DNA from: Thermoanaerobaculia bacterium
GTDB taxonomy: Bacteria > Acidobacteriota > Thermoanaerobaculia > UBA5066 > Gp7-AA6
Reading direction: 5' to 3'
Length of the DNA: 64,000 bases
Assembly: GCA_038229875.1 (NCBI GenBank)
Contig: JBBROA010000002.1
Location: forward strand, 1,713 to 65,712
Position numbers and translations under genes: made by a program. Every line of letters starts with the position of its first letter. The first letter of the stretch is position 1. Below, piece by piece: positions 13,329 through 46,922 of this stretch. The notes under the pieces were generated by a model that worked only from the letters and a program-made list of their open reading frames with translations, searched no databases and was not told the origin of the DNA.

Positions 13329-13496
13329 TAACGTATATCAAACATGCCGGGATCTGAACAAAAATATGCACGCCACCGTACCAACCTCCAAAAAACCCTC
13401 CGGCGGGTCGGACGCACCGGATCTGGTATCCCCGCCCGCAATGGCCACAATAAGTTGTGGAACACTCCGGGGGCTTTTGCTAGATTCGTGAACACG

Positions 13497-16400
13497 ATGT
13501 TCAAACTCGAGCGGGTGCAGATCTCGGGCTTCAAGTCCTTCTACGAGAAGGTCGACCTCGCATTTCCGGGCAGCGTCACGGCGGTCGTGGGCCCGAACGG
13601 GTGTGGCAAATCGAACATCAGTGACGCGGTCTCGTGGGCGCTCGGCGAACAGAGCGCCAAGACGCTGCGTGGCGAGCGCATGGACGACGTCATCTTCAAC
13701 GGATCCGCCAGGCGGCGCCCGCTCGGAATGTGCGAGGTCATCCTGACGCTCTCGACCCGCGCCCGGGTGAGCGCGCGTCAGGACGGGAAGAGCAACGGCG
13801 ACGGGGACGGGGCGGACGGCGGCGGCGAAAACGGCCACGGCGCCGGGAACGGTAACGGGAACGGGGGAAGCGAGACCGACGGCGACCTGCTGCGGATCGG
13901 GCGTCGGGTGTACCGCGAAGGGACCGGCGAATACTTCTTAAACGACAAGCAGGTCCGGTTGAAGGACATCCAGGACAAGCTGCTCGGCACCGGTCTCGGC
14001 GTGCGCGCGTATTCGGTGATCGAGCAGGGACGGATCGATCAGGTGCTCTCGACCAAGCCGCAGGACCGGCGCCGGCTCATCGAAGAGGCGTCCGGCATCA
14101 CGCGATACAAGCTCAAGAAGCGGCTCGCGGAAGGCAAGCTCGAAGAGACGCGCGGCAACCTTCTGAGGATCTCGGACATCGTGTCGGAGATCGAGAAGAA
14201 CGTGGCGTCCTTGAAGCGGCAGGCGTCTCGCGCCGCGAAGTACCGCGAACAATCCGACGCGCTTCGCGGGAAAAAAGCGGCGCTCGCGAGAACGCGGCAC
14301 GACGTGCTCCAGGCGGCGGTCGCCGAAGCGGAGCGGACGCGGGACGCGCGGCGCGACGTCGAAGCCGCCGCCGCCGCCGCGCTCGGTCGCGCGGAGTCGG
14401 AGCTCGCGGCGGCGCGGCTCGCGGCGGCGGACCTCCAGGCCGAACGCGACCGTCTCCGGGACGCGGTCGCCGCGCTCGAAAACGCGATCCAGCGCGATGA
14501 CGCGCTGCTCGAGGGCAACCGTCGCGCCGCGGCGGATCTCGCCGACCGCCGCGCCTCGCTCGAGCGAGAAGGCCGCGATGTCGCCGCCGAGCACACCAGG
14601 TCCGCCGCGGAGCTCACGGAGCTGGAGGAGCGGCTCGAGCGCGCGGTGGCCGAGGCCCGCTCCCGCTCCCTGGCCCGCGAAGACGCGGACAGCCGGGCCG
14701 CAGCGGGCGCCTCCGCTTTCTCGGAGCTCGAGCGCGAGCTCGACCGGGCACGGGAGGACGCGCTTCTCGCCGCCGGCGAAAGAGTCACCGCCCGCAACGC
14801 GCGCCACGAGGTGGACCTCGAAGCCTCTCGCGCCACCGCTTCGCTGGCCCGGCTCGAGGAAGCGCACGCGCGGGCGGTCTCGGAGCTCGCGCTGCGGGAA
14901 AAGGAAGTCGAGGCCGCTCTCGAAGAGGAGCGGCGCCTGACCCGGGAGGCGGCGGACGCGCGGGCTGAGACCGAGGCCTGGGAGGCGGAGCTGTCCCGCC
15001 TCGCCGGCGCGCTGGCCGAATCCGAGGTCGCGCGAGAGACGGCGCGCGAGGGCCTCTCGATCTCGGAGCACCGCCTGGGAGCGTTGAACGAGATCTGGAA
15101 GAGCCGGCAGGGCAACCTCCACGCGGTCCGGGGCGCGCTGGCCACCGCCGGTATCGCGGAAGCGGGAGCGCTGGCCGACCGGCTGATGCCGGCCGTCGGA
15201 TGGGAGGAAGCGGTCGACCTTCTTCTGGGGGAAGACCTCGAAGCGATCGTGTGCGGCGGAGACCCCGAGGCCGCGGTCGAAGCCTCCCGGGGGCTCGCCT
15301 CCGCGACCTTCGTGCGAAGCGGTTGGACGGACGAGCGCGGCGCCTCGCGGGTCGCGGGAACCGAGGGTGGCTGGGAGATTGCACTTCAGAACTTCAACAG
15401 CCTCTCTCCCGCCGAGCGCGCGGCGCTCCCGCCCGTTGCCCTCGTTTCAACTTTCGCCGCCGCCCTCGAGCTCTCGGGCATCCACCCGGAGACGACGTTC
15501 GTGACGCGCCGGCGCGAGCTCGTCCGGGGCTCCCTGGTTCGCGTCGTCCACACGCCTCCCGAGGCGTCCGGCCTGTTCGCCCTCCGCCGCGACATCGACC
15601 GCCTCGGGCTCGAAACCGCCCGGGCCCGCGAAAGCGTCGCCGCGCTCGACCGGTCGATCGAAGACCTTCGCCGCGCGCGGCACGAATGCGAGGCGGCCAT
15701 GCCGGCCCGACGTGACCGGGAGCGTGAGGCCAGCGGCCGGCTTTCCGGGTTCGTGGCGCGTTTCGAAGAGCGGCGCGCCGAACGGGACCGACTGGCGCGA
15801 GAGCGAGAGACGCTCGAAACGGAGGCCGTCGCTCTCCGCCAGGAATCCGAACGCCTGGCGGGCGCCCGCTCCGCGCTCGAGGCCGACGAACGGGCTCACG
15901 GCACCCGGGAGGCGTCGATCCGCGAGCGCGCGGAAAAGCTCGCCAGCGCGCTGCCCGAGGCGCGCTCCTTTGCCGCCGCGGCGGCCGACGAGCTCGCCCA
16001 CCGGCGAACGGAGGCGGAGGTCGCGGCCGAAAGAAGGCGTTCGCTCGAAACCGCGCGCGAGAAGCTCGTCGAAGCTCGGGGCATCCTGGAGCGGCGGATG
16101 GGAGACGCATTCGAAGAGGGGCGGCGGCTCACGGAACGCGCGGAGGAGCTCGCGCGCGAGGAGTCGGAAGCCCGAGCGCGGCAAGCGGAGAACATCAGAG
16201 CGCGGGAGACCGCGTCGGAAGAGCTCGAGGCCGCGTCCGCGACAGCGACGGAAGCGGGAACCAGCGTGCTTACCGCCGAGGACGGCACGAAGGTCGAGCG
16301 CGCCACGCTCGACGCGGCCCGCGAAGCGCGATTCGAAGCGGAGGTCGGCGAGACACGGATTCGATCCGACTTCGACCACGCGACAGCTCAGGCACAGGAC

Positions 16401-17102
16401 GAATTCGGTGTGCCGCCGGCCTCCCTGGATGCTCCGGAAGATCGCTCTCCCGAGGCGCTCACGGCCCTCGAGGAAGAGGTCGCGACGCTCGCGGCGTCCA
16501 TCGAGAGACTCGGACCCGTCAACCTCCTCGCGCTCGAGGAGCATCGCGAAAGCTCGGAGCGGCTCCTCTTTCTGACCGCGCAGCGCGACGACCTGTTGAA
16601 ATCGGTGGCCGAGCTCCAGGATTCGATTCGCAAGATCAACGCGACGTCCTCGGAACGCTTCCGGCAGGCGTTCGAGGCGGTCAATGAGAACTTCAAGGCG
16701 ATGTTCTCGCGTCTCTTTCAGGGAGGCGCGGCCGAGATGCGCCTTCTGGACGACAACGACCTTCTCGAGTCCGGGGTCGAGATCATCGCGCAGCCGCCCG
16801 GAAAGCGAAACCAGTCGATTCAGCTTCTTTCCGGAGGCGAAAAGGCGCTGACCGCGATCGCCCTGCTGATGGCGATCTTCCGCTACAAACCTTCCCCGTT
16901 CTGCATCCTCGACGAGGTCGACGCTCCCCTCGACGAGGCAAACATCGACCGCTTCACGAAGCTCCTCCGCGACATGACCGACGACACGCAGTTCATCGCG
17001 ATCACCCATAACAAACGGACGATGGAAACCGCGGACGTCATGTACGGGGTCACGATGGAGGAGCCCGGCTGCTCGAAGATCGTCTCGGTTCGGTTCGACT
17101 GA
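13497..17102 (+). CDS. smc: chromosome segregation protein SMC
   Basis: MFKLERVQISGFKSFYEKVDLAFPGSVTAVVGPNGCGKSNISDA (Walker A); long coiled coils; a C-terminal LSGGEKALTAIALLMAIF...ILDEVDAPLDEAN signature/Walker B. Confidence 0.92.
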   Translation: MFKLERVQISGFKSFYEKVDLAFPGSVTAVVGPNGCGKSNISDAVSWALGEQSAKTLRGERMDDVIFNGSARRRPLGMCEVILTLSTRARVSARQDGKSNGDGDGADGGGENGHGAGNGNGNGGSETDGDLLRIGRRVYREGTGEYFLNDKQVRLKDIQDKLLGTGLGVRAYSVIEQGRIDQVLSTKPQDRRRLIEEASGITRYKLKKRLAEGKLEETRGNLLRISDIVSEIEKNVASLKRQASRAAKYREQSDALRGKKAALARTRHDVLQAAVAEAERTRDARRDVEAAAAAALGRAESELAAARLAAADLQAERDRLRDAVAALENAIQRDDALLEGNRRAAADLADRRASLEREGRDVAAEHTRSAAELTELEERLERAVAEARSRSLAREDADSRAAAGASAFSELERELDRAREDALLAAGERVTARNARHEVDLEASRATASLARLEEAHARAVSELALREKEVEAALEEERRLTREAADARAETEAWEAELSRLAGALAESEVARETAREGLSISEHRLGALNEIWKSRQGNLHAVRGALATAGIAEAGALADRLMPAVGWEEAVDLLLGEDLEAIVCGGDPEAAVEASRGLASATFVRSGWTDERGASRVAGTEGGWEIALQNFNSLSPAERAALPPVALVSTFAAALELSGIHPETTFVTRRRELVRGSLVRVVHTPPEASGLFALRRDIDRLGLETARARESVAALDRSIEDLRRARHECEAAMPARRDREREASGRLSGFVARFEERRAERDRLARERETLETEAVALRQESERLAGARSALEADERAHGTREASIRERAEKLASALPEARSFAAAAADELAHRRTEAEVAAERRRSLETAREKLVEARGILERRMGDAFEEGRRLTERAEELAREESEARARQAENIRARETASEELEAASATATEAGTSVLTAEDGTKVERATLDAAREARFEAEVGETRIRSDFDHATAQAQDEFGVPPASLDAPEDRSPEALTALEEEVATLAASIERLGPVNLLALEEHRESSERLLFLTAQRDDLLKSVAELQDSIRKINATSSERFRQAFEAVNENFKAMFSRLFQGGAAEMRLLDDNDLLESGVEIIAQPPGKRNQSIQLLSGGEKALTAIALLMAIFRYKPSPFCILDEVDAPLDEANIDRFTKLLRDMTDDTQFIAITHNKRTMETADVMYGVTMEEPGCSKIVSVRFD

Positions 17103-24263: not shown

Positions 24264-24608
24264 ATGGCCATCGCTCTCGCCGAAGAAAGTCCCGAAATCC
24301 AGCACAAGTCTCAGCGGGCGAACTTCCGCTGGACGCTGGCTTCGCCGTGGGACGAACAACGCCTGGCGGCTTTCCTCATGGTCAAACACCGCCGCAACGA
24401 CGCGGACTGGACGAGGCGCTCTTCCCCGTTCTTCGCCTCGCTCGGCCAGGACACGGTCGAATGTTCGGTCCCGATCACCGGTCCCGACGCCCTCCCGGAC
24501 CTGGAAAAACTCCTGACGCGCGAACTGCTGGGAATCCTCACCGGCGCGAGCCGGATCCACGACGAAATGGAAACCGGCAGCGACTGGCGGAGAGTCACAC
24601 CGCCGTAG
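24264..24608 (+). CDS. hypothetical protein
   Basis: Track ORF. It is located on an unoccupied stretch and has no recognisable motif. It lies upstream of the repeat element and the DGQHR gene. Confidence 0.35.
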   Translation: MAIALAEESPEIQHKSQRANFRWTLASPWDEQRLAAFLMVKHRRNDADWTRRSSPFFASLGQDTVECSVPITGPDALPDLEKLLTRELLGILTGASRIHDEMETGSDWRRVTPP

Positions 24609-24716
24609 TCGATCGATGTCGAGCGTCGACCCTTCAGCGACTCGTCTTTCCCCGTACCCTTCCCCCGGACAGTTTCCGCCGCGCGCGCGAAATGCACGCA
24701 ACTCCCTTCGGGCCTT

Positions 24717-24951
24717 CTCACCCCGACCCTCTCCCCGAGCGCGGACAGAGGGAGGTGGCGTCTCTCATCTCAATCTCGAATACGCTCGCCCGGAGAGGAG
24801 TCTCCTGACCGAAGGGAAGGAGGAGCCTCTCCGGGCGGGAGCGAAGCGAGCGGAGGGAGAAGGCGGGCGGTCGAAGGCCGCACCCGGCCGAGCCGCCCGC
24901 CGGTGCCGTTCGCGGCCGCGAACGGCAGCTCCCGGAGCGAGCGGAGCGACG
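24717..24951 (+). repeat. structured dispersed repeat, copy A (about 235 bp)
   Basis: About 85% identical to copy B. Internal hairpins are CCCTCTCC...GGAGAGGG, GGCGGGCGG...CCGCCCGCC and GCCGTTCGC-GGCC-GCGAACGGC. It lies in the 5' region of the DGQHR gene. Confidence 0.75.
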
Positions 24952-24984
24952 TTCTATACTCCCCCCAAAGATAAGGGGGCCAGG

Positions 24985-26109
24985 ATGCTGTCCGTTCCCT
25001 CACTCCGACTGAACCAGTTCGGCGTGCGGTTCTATGAGGCTCTGCTTTCCGGAGCGGATCTCCAGACACTCGTTGGTTTTGAGGTGCTGTCCTTCGGGGC
25101 CGGCAGCCAGACGACCCGCGGAAAAGCGAAGGCCGGCGGGCGGGTCAACTGGGAGTTCCTGGAGAAGAAGATCGGCTCGTCCGAACAGGCTTTCCAACGG
25201 CCGATCATCCAGAAGAAGATCGAGGAGCTGGTCGCCTACTACCTCCAATGCGCCGACTCCGGGACCCTGCCGGCGATCGCAGGCAGCGTGCTGTTAGTGT
25301 CCGAGAAGCGCCTCGACTTTGCCCCGTCGGGCGGGCGAAGCGACATCGGGACCCTGAAGCTGCCCGACGAAGGCGGCATCCTTCGAGCCCTGGACGGCCA
25401 GCACCGCCTGCTCGCGCTCCACCAGCTCGCCGAGAAGCACAACCTGAAGGACTTCCAGGTCCCCGCGGTCGTGTTCGACGCCCTGACCGCAGACCAGGTC
25501 GTCGAGCTCTTCGTCACGATCAACAGCAAGCACACGAAGCTGAACCCCTCGCACCTGATCTCTCTCTCGGGGCGCCGGCTCTACCGAGACGAGAATCTCG
25601 CCGCGGCGCACGACGTCATCCGCAGCCTGAACGAGGACGAGCACTCGCCTCTGCGCGGACAGATCAAGGTGCTCGGCATCGGAAAGGGCGCCGTGACGCA
25701 GGCCTCGCTCGCGGACGAGCTCCGCGACGTGTTCGCCGCGATGGACGCGGCGGGCGGGCGCATGGCGAAGGAGTTTCGTGAGAACGCCCGCCGCTTCTTT
25801 CTGAACTACTTCAAGGCCGCGGGGCGCGCTTTCCCGGCGGCGTTCGCGGGACGGAAATATTCGATCAAGAGCGCGACGTCCCTGCGAGCGTTCATCCGGA
25901 TCGTGCCCTACGTCATCGCGATGATCCGGAGCCGCGCCGGAGACGTGTGGTCGTCGGGAGAGCTCGACGCGGCGCTGCGGCCCTGGTCCGAGGCCGTAGG
26001 CGACAAGCGCTTCGAGACGGAAGGCGCATGGAAAGAGAAGATGACCGGCGGGACGCGCTCGGCCGTCGAGATCCTCGCGCGCGAGCTTCGACAGGGCTTG
26101 AACACCTGA
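24985..26109 (+). CDS. DGQHR-domain protein (DndB/DpdB-like, ParB/Srx fold)
   Basis: AAGGGGG Shine-Dalgarno. MLSVPSLRLNQFGVRFYEALLSG...ILRALDGQHRLLALHQL...VVELFVTINSKHTKLN matches the DGQHR family. Confidence 0.8.
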   Translation: MLSVPSLRLNQFGVRFYEALLSGADLQTLVGFEVLSFGAGSQTTRGKAKAGGRVNWEFLEKKIGSSEQAFQRPIIQKKIEELVAYYLQCADSGTLPAIAGSVLLVSEKRLDFAPSGGRSDIGTLKLPDEGGILRALDGQHRLLALHQLAEKHNLKDFQVPAVVFDALTADQVVELFVTINSKHTKLNPSHLISLSGRRLYRDENLAAAHDVIRSLNEDEHSPLRGQIKVLGIGKGAVTQASLADELRDVFAAMDAAGGRMAKEFRENARRFFLNYFKAAGRAFPAAFAGRKYSIKSATSLRAFIRIVPYVIAMIRSRAGDVWSSGELDAALRPWSEAVGDKRFETEGAWKEKMTGGTRSAVEILARELRQGLNT

Positions 26110-26176
26110 ATCGGGCGGCGGGCGGCCGGAACTCGCCGGCGTCTTTTTCGTAAGTCTCAGAGAGGAGCGGACCGCC

Positions 26177-26758
26177 ATGGGAGCCATCGGAGGGTGCCTT
26201 CTGATCATAGTCGTCGGGGCGTTTGCCGCCGCGATCTGGGCCATCTCGCGTTACAACAACCTGGTCACCCTGAAGAACCAGGTGGCCAACGCCTGGAAGC
26301 AGATCGACGTCCAGTTGAAGCGCCGGCATGACCTGATTCCAAACCTCATCGCCTCGGTGAAGGGCGAGATGCAGTTCGAGCAGGACACCCTGGAGAAGGT
26401 CATCCAGGCGCGCAACAGCGCGGTCACCGCGCGCGGCGTGGCCGACACGGCGGAAAAGGAGAATCAGCTCACGCAGACCCTTTCCCGGCTGTTCGCGCTT
26501 GCCGAGAACTACCCGAACCTGAAGGCGAACGAAAGCGTGAAAGCCCTGATGGAGGAGCTGACCTCGACCGAGAACAAGATCGGGTTCGCGCGCCAGTTCT
26601 ACAACGACATCGCCACCCGCTTCAACACGGTTCAGGAGGTCTTCCCCGATCAGTTCATCGCGCGCGCGTTCAACTTCCAGCACGTCGAGCTGTTCGAGAT
26701 CACCGAGCCCTCGGAGCGCGACGTCCCGGCCGTCGACCTGAGCCTGAAGCCGAAGTAG
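26177..26758 (+). CDS. lemA: LemA-family protein
   Basis: An N-terminal TM helix followed by ISRYNNLVTLKNQVANAWKQIDVQLKRRHDLIPNLI...LFALAENYPNLKANE is a typical LemA sequence. Confidence 0.85.
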   Translation: MGAIGGCLLIIVVGAFAAAIWAISRYNNLVTLKNQVANAWKQIDVQLKRRHDLIPNLIASVKGEMQFEQDTLEKVIQARNSAVTARGVADTAEKENQLTQTLSRLFALAENYPNLKANESVKALMEELTSTENKIGFARQFYNDIATRFNTVQEVFPDQFIARAFNFQHVELFEITEPSERDVPAVDLSLKPK

Positions 26759-26881: not shown

Positions 26882-27856
26882 ATGACAAACCTCTACGACC
26901 AGCAGCGCCACAACCTCCGCCGCACCGCCGGCCTTCTGGCCGGCTTTATCGCCTTCGTCACCGTGCTCGGAATGGGAGGGGATCTTTTTCTCTACGGGTC
27001 GGGCGCGAGCCCCGGCCTGCCCGTCCTGACCATCGGGGCGCTTCTTTTCGGCGGCGGCTCGGCTCTCTGGTCGCTCAAAGGAGGCGACCGGGCCGTCCTG
27101 GAATCCACGCACGCGCGGCCGCTCGACCGGTCGGACCCCCGCCACAAGCTGCTCGACAACGTGGTCGAGGAGATGGCGATCGCGTCGGGACTTCCGAAGC
27201 CTGCGGTGTACATCGTCCCGGACCCGGATCCGAACGCGTTTGCGACCGGCTCCGGGCCGGAAAAGTCATCAATCGCGGTGACCGCGGGACTCCTCGACGT
27301 CCTGAACCGCGAGGAGCTTCAGGCCGTCGTTTCGCACGAGATGTCGCATGTGAGGAACTACGACGTACGCGTGATGACGGTCGTCGCGGCGCTGGTCGGA
27401 TCGGTGCTGCTGATCTCCGACTGGGGCAGTCGAGGGTTGTCGTGGGGAGGCGGCCGGTCGAACGACGACGACGACAGCGGCGGCGGCGGCGGGCTCGGCA
27501 TTGTCTTCTTCGTGCTGTGGGTGGTCTCGCTCGTCCTCGCGCCGATCATCGCGCAGATCGTGGCGATGTCGGTCTCGCGGGAACGCGAATACCTCGCGGA
27601 CGCCACAGGCGCCGAGCTGACACGCAATCCTCTGGCGCTAGCCTCCGCTCTCGAAAAGATCGCCGCGGCGGTCGAGCCGACACGCTCGATCAAGCAGGGC
27701 GTCGCCCATCTCTGCATTGAGGACCCGCGGGGCCGCGCGATCAACGAGCGGGCGGGGATGTTCTCGAACCTGTTCGCGACCCACCCGCCGATCGCCAGGC
27801 GCATCGCACTCCTGAGAGAGATGGCGTATCAGATCCCGGGAGGCGTGAGGGGTTAG
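26882..27856 (+). CDS. M48-family HtpX-like zinc metalloprotease
   Basis: N-terminal TM helices; AVVSHEMSHVRNYD carries HExxH; a second membrane segment and a downstream Glu in EREYLADATGAE. This pairing with LemA is common. Confidence 0.85.
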   Translation: MTNLYDQQRHNLRRTAGLLAGFIAFVTVLGMGGDLFLYGSGASPGLPVLTIGALLFGGGSALWSLKGGDRAVLESTHARPLDRSDPRHKLLDNVVEEMAIASGLPKPAVYIVPDPDPNAFATGSGPEKSSIAVTAGLLDVLNREELQAVVSHEMSHVRNYDVRVMTVVAALVGSVLLISDWGSRGLSWGGGRSNDDDDSGGGGGLGIVFFVLWVVSLVLAPIIAQIVAMSVSREREYLADATGAELTRNPLALASALEKIAAAVEPTRSIKQGVAHLCIEDPRGRAINERAGMFSNLFATHPPIARRIALLREMAYQIPGGVRG

Positions 27857-27916: not shown

Positions 27917-28204
27917 CTAATCCAGGTCGAAATCGCGGATCGGTCGCGAGTCGTCCTTCTTGGCCCGGTCGAAGAGCTCGTCGAACTTCCGGTTCAGCAC
28001 GTCCTTCTTCGACTTCTCCGCCTCGACCGAGGCGTTGAATTTCTTTTCGCGCTCGATGTCGTGCGTCTTTAAGGCGCCGATGGCGTCATCGACGGACTGG
28101 AACGTGCGGGCAACCTTCGGCGCCTCATGGGCGATGACCGCCTTCAGCTCCGGGTCGATCTTCAACCGCGCGTTGCAGCAGGGGCAGAGAAGCTCGAAGT
28201 CCAT
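27917..28204 (-). CDS. small zinc-ribbon-like protein (CPCC motif)
   Basis: MDFELLCPCCNARLKIDPELKAV...; 95 aa with a charged C-terminal half. Confidence 0.5.
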   Translation of the reverse strand: MDFELLCPCCNARLKIDPELKAVIAHEAPKVARTFQSVDDAIGALKTHDIEREKKFNASVEAEKSKKDVLNRKFDELFDRAKKDDSRPIRDFDLD

Positions 28205-28320
28205 GGCGGAAGTGTAACGGAGCGAAGGAGGGGAAGCGACCGGCGGAGGCTGAGTCGATTAGCGCTGCGGCTGATTTCGCGTAGTCAGGTGGGCTGAACA
28301 GCATCAACTGCCTGCGGCCC

Positions 28321-28548
28321 CTCACTCCAACCCTCTCCCCCGGCGCGGTGAGAGCTGCGCGCTCGCCCGCGGTGGCGAATACGCTCGCATCGAGAGGAGT
28401 CTCCCGACCAGAGGGAGGGAGGAGCCTCTCGATGCGGGAGCCGCAGCGAACGGAGGGAGCAGGCGAACGGTCGAGCCGACAGGCGAGCCGTTCGCCGGTG
28501 CCTTCGCCGCGACGGCGAAGGCAGCTCGCGCAGTGAGCGGAGGCGACG
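28321..28548 (+). repeat. structured dispersed repeat, copy B (about 228 bp)
   Basis: Homologous to copy A. Its hairpins carry compensatory substitutions: GGCGAACGG...CCGTTCGCC and GCCTTCGCCG-CGA-CGGCGAAGGC. Its 3' end abuts the TAA stop of the Hsp15-like gene. Confidence 0.75.
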
Positions 28549-41892: not shown

Positions 41893-41935
41893 GACCGAAT
41901 ACTACCGTCGCATCCGCCACGGCGGGCATGGCGCG

Positions 41936-41985
41936 CCACCTCCCTCCCCGCGCCCGGGGAGACGAGCGGGGTGAGGGGGCTCGGC
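41936..41985 (-). repeat. reverse-orientation fragment (copy D) of the structured repeat
   Basis: The reverse complement reads GAGCCCCCTCACCCCGCTCGTCTCCCCGGGCGCGGGGAGGGAGGTGG. This matches the 5' module of copy C, CGCCCCCTCACCCCGGCCCTCTCCCCCGGCGCGCGGGGAGAGGGAGCGG. Confidence 0.55.
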
Positions 41986-46760: not shown

Positions 46761-46824
46761 CCGGGTTTACGCGAGTTGCAACCGGCGTCTGTGACGAGTC
46801 CTGTCAGGCCTGATTCGCCGCCCC

Positions 46825-46922
46825 CTCACCCCGGCCCTCTCCCCCGGCGCGCGGGGAGAGGGAGCGGAAGGGAGCAGCGAGCGGAGCCGCCCTTGCGCCT
46901 CAGGGAGTGAGCGGAGGCGACG
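46825..46922 (+). repeat. structured dispersed repeat, short copy C (about 98 bp)
   Basis: CCCTCTCCCCCGGCGCGCGGGGAGAGGG forms a perfect 10-bp-stem hairpin. The 3' end GAGTGAGCGGAGGCGACG is shared with copies A and B and supplies the last 8 codons plus the stop of the tautomerase gene. Confidence 0.7.

Follow-up and report, generated by a model that had tools for sequence, protein, structure and literature searches.

What does a relative of DndB and DpdB do where no DNA-modification genes accompany it? The question is raised by a 64,000-nucleotide stretch of the genome of a Thermoanaerobaculia bacterium (contig JBBROA010000002.1; 66.7% G+C; hereafter the window), in which a plus-strand gene at 24985..26109 encodes a stand-alone DGQHR-domain protein of 374 aa. 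The protein is basic, with an isoelectric point of 9.5 overall and 10.2 in its C-terminal third, and the codon-position G+C contents of its gene (0.67/0.51/0.82) are typical for the window. Reasoning by analogy with characterized relatives, we consider it somewhat probable that it belongs to a distinct, stand-alone DGQHR subfamily of ParB/sulfiredoxin fold and acts as a nucleoside triphosphate (NTP)-gated chromosomal DNA-binding switch.

The true start of the gene is the ATG at 24985, because all orthologs share the N-terminus M[LI]SVP(S/A)LRLNQFG at that position and a G-rich ribosome-binding site (GGGGG or GGAGG) lies just 5′ of the ATG at every ortholog locus. A longer in-frame open reading frame (ORF) from 24616 was rejected as the gene start; its extra part merely reads through a repeat described below. 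The protein passed the TIGR03187 model of the DGQHR domain with 117.9 bits (cutoff 58.85) over residues 7–308 and profile positions 2–273 of 276. It also passed the Pfam DndB family PF14072 (56.2 bits versus a cutoff of 29.1), in this case over profile positions 32–165 of 338 only. It fell far below the cutoffs of the equivalog models for DndB (TIGR03233; 29.6 bits versus 328), for DpdB (NF041060; 43.2 bits versus 300), and for DNA phosphorothioation-associated DGQHR protein 1 (DGQHR_dnd_1, TIGR04172; 42.5 bits versus 450). The PADLOC models gave the same weak, partial matches, the best being DpdB at 43 bits, while the DndB model reached 30 bits over residues 66–189 only. Nor did the protein qualify as a GmrSD/DUF262 member (Pfam GmrSD_N, 21.1 bits versus 33.2), and no nuclease domain was found in it. 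Near-identical proteins from metagenome-assembled genomes (MAGs) are already named 'DGQHR domain-containing protein' by NCBI. A preliminary description of this DNA had called the protein DndB/DpdB-like and had proposed a comparison with profile models; the two family models that were passed, with motifs where they are expected, support that assignment, whereas TIGR03233 failed by a wide margin. Its further suggestion that a stand-alone protein has a different role is plausible, given the failure on both the DndB and the DpdB equivalog models.

An alignment of 75 sequences from two subfamilies, which are only 25–31% identical to each other, contained 42 invariant columns, and the motifs were unchanged across both subfamilies. 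Invariant positions include the pair Q71 and R72 (codons at 25195..25200, plus strand) and the DGQHR pentapeptide formed by D137, G138, Q139, H140, and R141 (25393..25407, plus strand), as well as F176, V177, I179, N180, T184, N187, S189, H190, S221, P222, L223, G231, and Q239; at A144, conservation reaches 90% or more. The full signature D137-G-Q-H-R-L-L-A144 (25393..25416, plus strand) is the predicted NTP phosphate-binding motif. Within it, G138-xx-R141-xx-A144 matches the ParB Box II pattern GxxRxxA, and a 2025 survey of the ParB-CTPase fold includes a DndB-like protein, able to bind both ATP and GTP, whose Box II reads 'GQHRVEA' (PMC12704722). Residues 176–187 (FVTINSKHTKLN; codons at 25510..25545, plus strand) contain the FxxxN motif together with T184 and N187. 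The QR pair, the near-invariant DGQHR, and FxxxN, which PMC4619093 lists as criteria, are therefore all present. Overall, the N-terminal ~230 residues hold the QR, DGQHRxxA (equivalent to ParB GxxRxxA), and FxxIN...TxxNxSH motifs, and the ~145 residues after them make up a basic domain that is all-helical and has neither a nuclease nor a HEPN signature. Features of the subfamily's own are its conserved C-terminal ~65 residues and an N-terminal β-hairpin.

An AlphaFold2 run with 19 close homologues was unusable (mean predicted local distance difference test score, pLDDT, 39) and was replaced by a run on the 75-sequence alignment, which gave a pLDDT of 73.8 and a predicted template modeling score (pTM) of 0.56. 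This model places the N-terminal β-hairpin before a mixed α/β core and an all-helical C-terminal region (residues 203–373); within the core, a strand (133–137) runs into DGQHR and on into a helix (139–152). Foldseek comparison to predicted viral structures yielded 22 matches at E≤1e-3 (best 8.5e-11), comprising DndB-like, AIPR, GmrSD-N/DUF262, HNH-fused, and ParB/Srx proteins. Against the PDB, Foldseek found nothing significant, the top match being ParB-like PadC at E=0.35, and profile searches of PDB sequences found nothing. Profile-profile alignment (hhalign) with a genuine DndB reached 96.8% probability over residues 3–221 only; with a generic DGQHR protein it reached 98% over residues 62–313. 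Makarova et al. ascribed a HEPN Rx4-6H motif to DndB (PMC3632139). The window protein has no histidine after residue 220, so such a motif is impossible in its C-terminal domain and was rejected as a candidate. An SspE-type EHxxP motif was likewise rejected: the EHSP at residues 219–222 is wrongly spaced, and its E and H vary among orthologs.

These comparisons set the protein beside several characterized systems. It resembles DndB (TIGR03233, PF14072), the regulator of phosphorothioation, in its QR, DGQHR, and FxxxN motifs and in having a similar length of ~365 aa, but its C-terminal half does not align with DndB by hhalign, the HEPN signature is missing, and its gene never stands beside dndCDE. 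With DpdB (NF041060), the ATPase for preQ0 insertion into DNA by DpdA, it shares a predicted ParB-like N-terminal NTPase domain and a helical C-terminal domain, whereas the DpdB motif is DGQQR (PMC10164549) rather than DGQHR, and no dpd genes lie near the window gene. As a generic DGQHR protein (TIGR03187), a group that also takes in the partners of HNH endonucleases in dnd islands, the window protein passes the domain model; the present subfamily differs in that it has no nuclease partner and is chromosomal and core-like. A GxxRxxA-type Box II between a β-strand and a helix is also found in ParB/Spo0J CTPase clamps and in orphan ParB-fold NTP-binding proteins (PMC12704722). The fold matches to ParB/Spo0J and PadC are weak, and the concept of a stand-alone ParB-fold NTP switch applies; however, the protein has no sequence-level ParBc match, no recognized helix-turn-helix parS-binding domain, and no parA partner. 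Finally, the DUF262/GmrS domain of GmrSD, BrxU, and SspE is related through the DGQQR/DGQHR motif family, fold matches, and a GmrSD_N score that lies below the cutoff, but the window protein lacks the DUF1524/HNH nuclease domain.

We searched for partner genes at two levels. Within the window, 48 likely genes, picked by length and third-position G+C, were scanned with Pfam and PADLOC. Their Pfam content was of a housekeeping kind, such as NAD-dependent DNA ligase, SMC, malate synthase, and agmatine deiminase, along with acetyl-CoA synthetase, sugar ABC transporters, and sigma-54 activators. PADLOC returned only generic matches (SMC-like ATPases, sigma-54 activators, and a subtilase), and all further hits were weaker than E=3e-6; none of the scanned window genes was a credible candidate for a Dnd, Dpd, or Ssp component. 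At the second level, DndC, DndD, DndE, and the adjacent HNH nuclease of a genuine dndBCDE operon on a Pseudomonas plasmid (L090) were used as tblastn queries and had zero matches in the window and in 89 related loci. Dnd, Dpd, and Ssp components were found neither in the window nor in the 10 kb on either side of these 89 loci, and neither dpdA/TGT-like nor other dpd genes occurred in the window or in the called neighborhoods. The absence of dnd, dpd, and ssp partners, which the preliminary description had claimed for the window, was thus borne out there and in the related loci; the case that it raised against itself, a cluster split just beyond the window's edge, found no counterpart within the flanks of the related loci. 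The Pseudomonas plasmid (NZ_CP133095.1, L090 12832–14743) carries, in its genuine dndBCDE island, a second DGQHR-domain gene paired to the HNH endonuclease gene, and the product of this second gene had 86 tblastn hits on the related loci, versus 37 for DndB.

The subfamily occurs in the core chromosome of numerous uncultured bacteria from soil. An exact-sequence look-up of the window protein returned no record. The closest 120 database proteins are 74–100% identical to the window protein, mostly 374–378 aa long, and come from Acidobacteriota/Thermoanaerobaculia MAGs. A HMMER scan of 1.84 billion cluster representatives detected 912 relatives at E≤1e-3 and 83 at E≤1e-30, with full-length relatives reaching down to ~25–35% identity. 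When one genome per GTDB species was scanned, at least 470 loci encoded relatives. Among the best 80 of these, all from MAGs, the gene appears once per genome bin, and identities fall into bands: 76–91% in Thermoanaerobaculia; 53–59% in Binatia, Myxococcota, Rokubacteria/Methylomirabilota, Thermodesulfobacteriota, and one Verrucomicrobiia bin; and 50–53% in Vicinamibacterales and other Acidobacteriota. Members of a sister subfamily, equal in length and sharing ~25–31% identity with the window protein, come from Polyangia, Binatia, Nitrospirae, and a cultured acidobacterium, Pyrinomonas methylaliphatogenes. On plasmids and in phages there were no close relatives, the best matches being partial and 23–33% identical. 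Across 17 syntenic loci, mean identity to the window proteins was 87.4% for the DGQHR protein, 79.8% and 72.3% for LemA and HtpX encoded downstream of it, 81.1% for a nearby 95-aa ORF, and 67.8% for a 114-aa ORF upstream. Because the DGQHR protein is more conserved than LemA and HtpX and its gene has a codon-position G+C typical for the window, the gene is, as judged from sequence comparison, vertically maintained and functionally constrained, and not a fast-evolving accessory defense gene. It persists as a single gene, under strong purifying selection, even as the genes around it change.

ParB itself is a CTP clamp. On our preferred reading, the window protein would bind, and probably hydrolyze, an NTP at the DGQHR site, and the nucleotide would gate both dimerization and the binding or release of DNA through the basic C-terminal domain. 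We favor such an NTP-gated DNA-binding switch because the protein combines a conserved, predicted nucleotide-binding motif with a probable ParB-type core and a basic helical C-terminal domain. The core-genome behavior of its gene points to a chromosomal role, which could be either regulatory or nucleoid-associated; a component role in phosphorothioate or 7-deazaguanine modification would not be expected. Two relatives serve as precedents for this scheme: DpdB is a homodimeric, DNA-stimulated ATPase (PMC10164549), and DndB is an ATP-modulated DNA-binding repressor (PMC4507180, PMC10853773).

To describe genomic context, we clustered the ORFs of 87 loci and used precomputed Pfam annotation of the called genes. 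No neighbor recurred from clade to clade, and a defense island was not seen in any examined context of the gene. Directly 5′ of the gene in the window lies a 114-aa ORF (24264..24608, plus strand) that matches nothing in Pfam, NCBIfam, or PADLOC. Its position next to the DGQHR gene is conserved in the closest Thermoanaerobaculia clade only (63–76% identical in 11 loci; absent from L002 and L003); the ORF was considered as a partner and rejected because it is confined to that one clade, and in the long-read contig L001 it looks frameshifted. Downstream are lemA (26177..26758, plus strand; LemA, 182 bits) and an M48/HtpX peptidase gene (26882..27856, plus strand; 115 bits), both of which we regard as syntenic neighbors rather than partners. 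The neighbors are thus those that the preliminary description had named. The order DGQHR-LemA-M48 is kept in 18 loci, all of a clade with at least 84% identity, and is missing at 75% identity and in other phyla. A functional link between DGQHR orphans and LemA/HtpX, for which the description had looked to co-occurrence, is not supported by a pattern limited to the closest clade and by the terminator-like hairpin that separates the gene from lemA.

Elsewhere the surroundings shift from clade to clade. Ser/Thr kinase genes lie downstream of the DGQHR gene in the 75% clade. Neighbors in Vicinamibacterales encode acyltransferase_3, OsmC, a TonB-dependent receptor, and LamB/YcsF; the genes around the Rokubacteria homologs encode a DAO oxidoreductase, EamA, a family-5 solute-binding protein, and a convergently transcribed GreA. 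The sister-subfamily gene of Pyrinomonas adjoins ilv, hom, and met biosynthesis genes. In three MAGs of Binatia, Myxococcota, and Thermodesulfobacteriota (L029, 8892–10001; L030; L031), a 4-nt overlap joins the RNase III (rnc) gene to the DGQHR start codon, which suggests that the two genes are co-transcribed in this clade. The window has an SMC gene (13344–17102, plus strand) 8 kb upstream of the DGQHR gene; in L006 (3642–7217) the distance is ~3 kb. A ParB-like link through SMC was considered and rejected: SMC is nearby in only 3 loci, and the proximity is probably coincidental. The 95-aa ORF, on the minus strand at 27917–28204, carries a zinc-ribbon-like CPCC motif at the N-terminus, has a charged helical tail, matches no family, and is 77–86% identical in 10 syntenic loci.

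Comparison of the upstream regions of 21 orthologs revealed a putative −10-like box, TATACT, at 24955..24960 (plus strand), 25 nt before the ATG, which is conserved across orthologs and may mark the gene's own promoter. Such a box lies 25–30 nt before the ATG both in the subgroup of the window gene and in the 75% clade, with TATAAT or TATACT at the same distance in L001, L006–L009, and L012 and, for the 75% clade, in L002, L004, L022, and L023. A generic sigma-70 scan called no promoter, and the box is proposed from ortholog conservation. It is followed by a short 5′ leader (24961..24984, plus strand) made up of a C-run (24961–24966), 8 nt, and a G-run that forms the ribosome-binding site (24975–24979). 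The C-run and G-run could pair, and L001, L006, L008, L009, and L012 have this CCCCC...GGGGG arrangement too, with a variable loop. Other ortholog subgroups have a conserved GGTATACC box farther upstream. In one subgroup (L010, L011, L013–L015, and L018–L020), a conserved palindromic box, CCGGTATACCCT, lies 50–85 nt before the ATG and is followed by GC-rich hairpins and TAGGAGGTGGCC-ATG; this box may be an alternative promoter or an operator. Beyond the 3′ end of the window gene, a terminator-like hairpin with a T-run (26121..26150, plus strand) begins 12 nt after the stop codon. The −10-like box and leader upstream, together with this hairpin, suggest that the DGQHR gene is monocistronic.

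As the preliminary description had reported, one copy of a structured repeat (~24700–24952) lies in the 376-nt gap 5′ of the gene; its suggestion that this copy could act as a leader or regulatory element is not supported by comparison with orthologs. Orthologous loci in which the 114-aa ORF was called have 50–170 nt, and no repeat, between that ORF and the DGQHR start, so the extra block of ~300 nt in the window is an inserted repeat. The block ends at ~24952, 5′ of the conserved −10-like box, and other copies lie in unrelated contexts and orientations. The core of this copy (copy A; 24780..24952, plus strand) is inserted DNA that orthologous loci lack and that does not belong to the gene. 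Copy B (28305..28546, plus strand), which consists of a small repeat and a core (28379–28546), is 76–77% identical to copy A and lies between two genes of the minus strand, the 95-aa ORF and an S4-domain gene. A third copy (L021, 145–289, minus strand) is 10 kb from the DGQHR gene of that genome and in the opposite orientation. The element is ~175 nt long with sharp ends, from ...TCGCGGCGCGAGGAGTCTCC... to ...GAGCGACG, and has the core GAGGAGTCTCCYGA...GGAGGAGCCTC followed by the 3′ end GAGCGACG. A second, smaller repeat (CTCACyCCrACCCTCTCCCC...GGGGAGAGGG-like; 24711..24760, plus strand) stands directly 5′ of the core in both large copies (at 28315–28354, plus strand, in copy B), and it also stands alone at two other intergenic sites, 46819–46866 on the plus strand and 41934–41980 on the minus strand.

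The exact core pattern was present on at least 120 soil-metagenome contigs (L091–L210), in many cases at contig ends; some contigs carry two copies, sometimes in tandem. Among the 120 listed contigs there was no homologue of DGQHR, LemA, HtpX, or the two small ORFs. The repeat folds far better than shuffled controls (z-scores −4.8 and −4.3), with compensatory changes in half of the 24 predicted pairs (12/24) in two hairpins. Copies are mostly intergenic and have no fixed orientation, and few lie between divergent genes; no Rfam family matched, even at E up to 1. The repeat is a dispersed structured element of the repetitive extragenic palindromic or miniature inverted-repeat transposable type, inserted immediately 5′ of the core promoter, where it presumably landed as a separate mobile or dispersed element. 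In this single genome it might influence DGQHR expression; the gene family as such is not marked by it.

Several points weigh against the proposed NTP-gated switch. Dimerization and DNA binding are suggested only by the behavior of relatives and by charge, confidence in the structural model is only moderate (pTM 0.56), and solved structures gave no significant match (PadC, E=0.35, was the best in Foldseek). A few loci, such as those with the RNase III overlap (L029–L031), suggest other links, and a partner system could lie elsewhere in the genome, the search having covered the window and the flanks of related loci. This last point leads to the rival in which the protein serves, as a DndB- or DpdB-type regulator or ATPase, a phosphorothioate or 7-deazaguanine system encoded at a distance. 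Its homology to both proteins over the DGQHR domain would fit, as would the fact that Dnd components are sometimes unlinked, dndA being an example (PMC3632139), and this genome was searched in the 64-kb window only. We nevertheless regard such a split cluster as very unlikely: the scores on all three equivalog models are far short of their cutoffs, no Dnd, Dpd, or Ssp gene appears in the window or within 10 kb of either side of 89 loci from many phyla, and the genuine DndB of the Pseudomonas plasmid directly adjoins dndCDE. Moreover, the family keeps a high identity in shifting housekeeping contexts, unlike patchy, laterally transferred modification islands. Local control is the least likely alternative of all. 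In that account the protein is a transcription factor for the downstream lemA-htpX genes and the upstream repeat is its operator or leader, an idea that draws on the autoregulating repressor DndB (PMC4507180) and on the gene order kept in 18 loci. It is contradicted by a synteny that disappears at 75% identity and throughout the other phyla although the protein itself stays conserved, by the terminator-like hairpin after the gene, and by a repeat that is missing upstream of orthologs and present on at least 120 unrelated contigs.

The two remaining rivals assign the protein a different activity. A stand-alone defense or abortive-infection effector of the AbiU1/AIPR/DUF262 kind, which would recognize DNA that is foreign or modified and would either deplete NTPs or nick DNA, is unlikely, if less so than the other three. 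In its favor, AIPR, GmrSD N-terminal, and HNH-fused proteins are among the closest structural matches, phages and small plasmids of lactic acid bacteria carry orphan DGQHR genes, and NTP-degrading roles have been proposed for ParB-superfamily proteins in conflict systems by the Aravind laboratory (PMC10853773). Yet a nuclease domain is neither fused nor adjacent, HEPN and EHxxP motifs are absent, the flanks are not defense islands, and the relatives on mobile elements are only remote; the gene is also more conserved than its housekeeping neighbors and present once per bin among the best 80 of the at least 470 loci. Quite unlikely, too, is an enzyme of ParB/Srx fold that acts on a protein or small molecule, by sulfiredoxin-like repair or kinase-like chemistry, in envelope or oxidative stress. 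The fold is one that supports chemistry of this sort (PMC10164549 cites sulfiredoxin), and stress-type genes (LemA/HtpX, OsmC, and Usp) recur nearby in some clades. Against this stand the lack of a neighbor common across clades, a single cysteine (C89) that is not invariant across the two subfamilies, a strongly basic C-terminal domain, and characterized DGQHR/DGQQR relatives that all act on or with DNA. We therefore rank all four explanations as less likely than the NTP-gated switch.

The protein is not of a new kind, as databases already annotate it at the domain level. What is new is a strongly conserved, stand-alone chromosomal subfamily that spans several little-studied phyla of soil bacteria and is decoupled from modification and defense systems; in this it differs from the characterized DGQHR/DGQQR proteins discussed here (DndB, DpdB, SspE, and GmrSD), which act inside DNA-modification or restriction systems. 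Automatic Pfam 'DndB' labels on such genes are accordingly not evidence for phosphorothioation. A broader proposal, which we offer as tentative and rather doubtful, is that this solo DGQHR family of ~375 aa and its sister subfamily represent an unrecognized housekeeping ParB-fold NTPase, a nucleotide-gated DNA clamp that serves as a nucleoid or gene-regulatory switch. The switch would then be carried in the core genome of Acidobacteriota, Methylomirabilota/Rokubacteria, Binatia, Myxococcota, and their relatives, and the presence of the sister subfamily in a cultured acidobacterium makes experiments feasible. If true, this would give the DndB/DpdB branch of the ParB superfamily a chromosomal role beyond DNA modification and defense, add to the recently recognized diversity of ParB-fold nucleotide switches, and provide a function for a gene present in hundreds of uncultured species.

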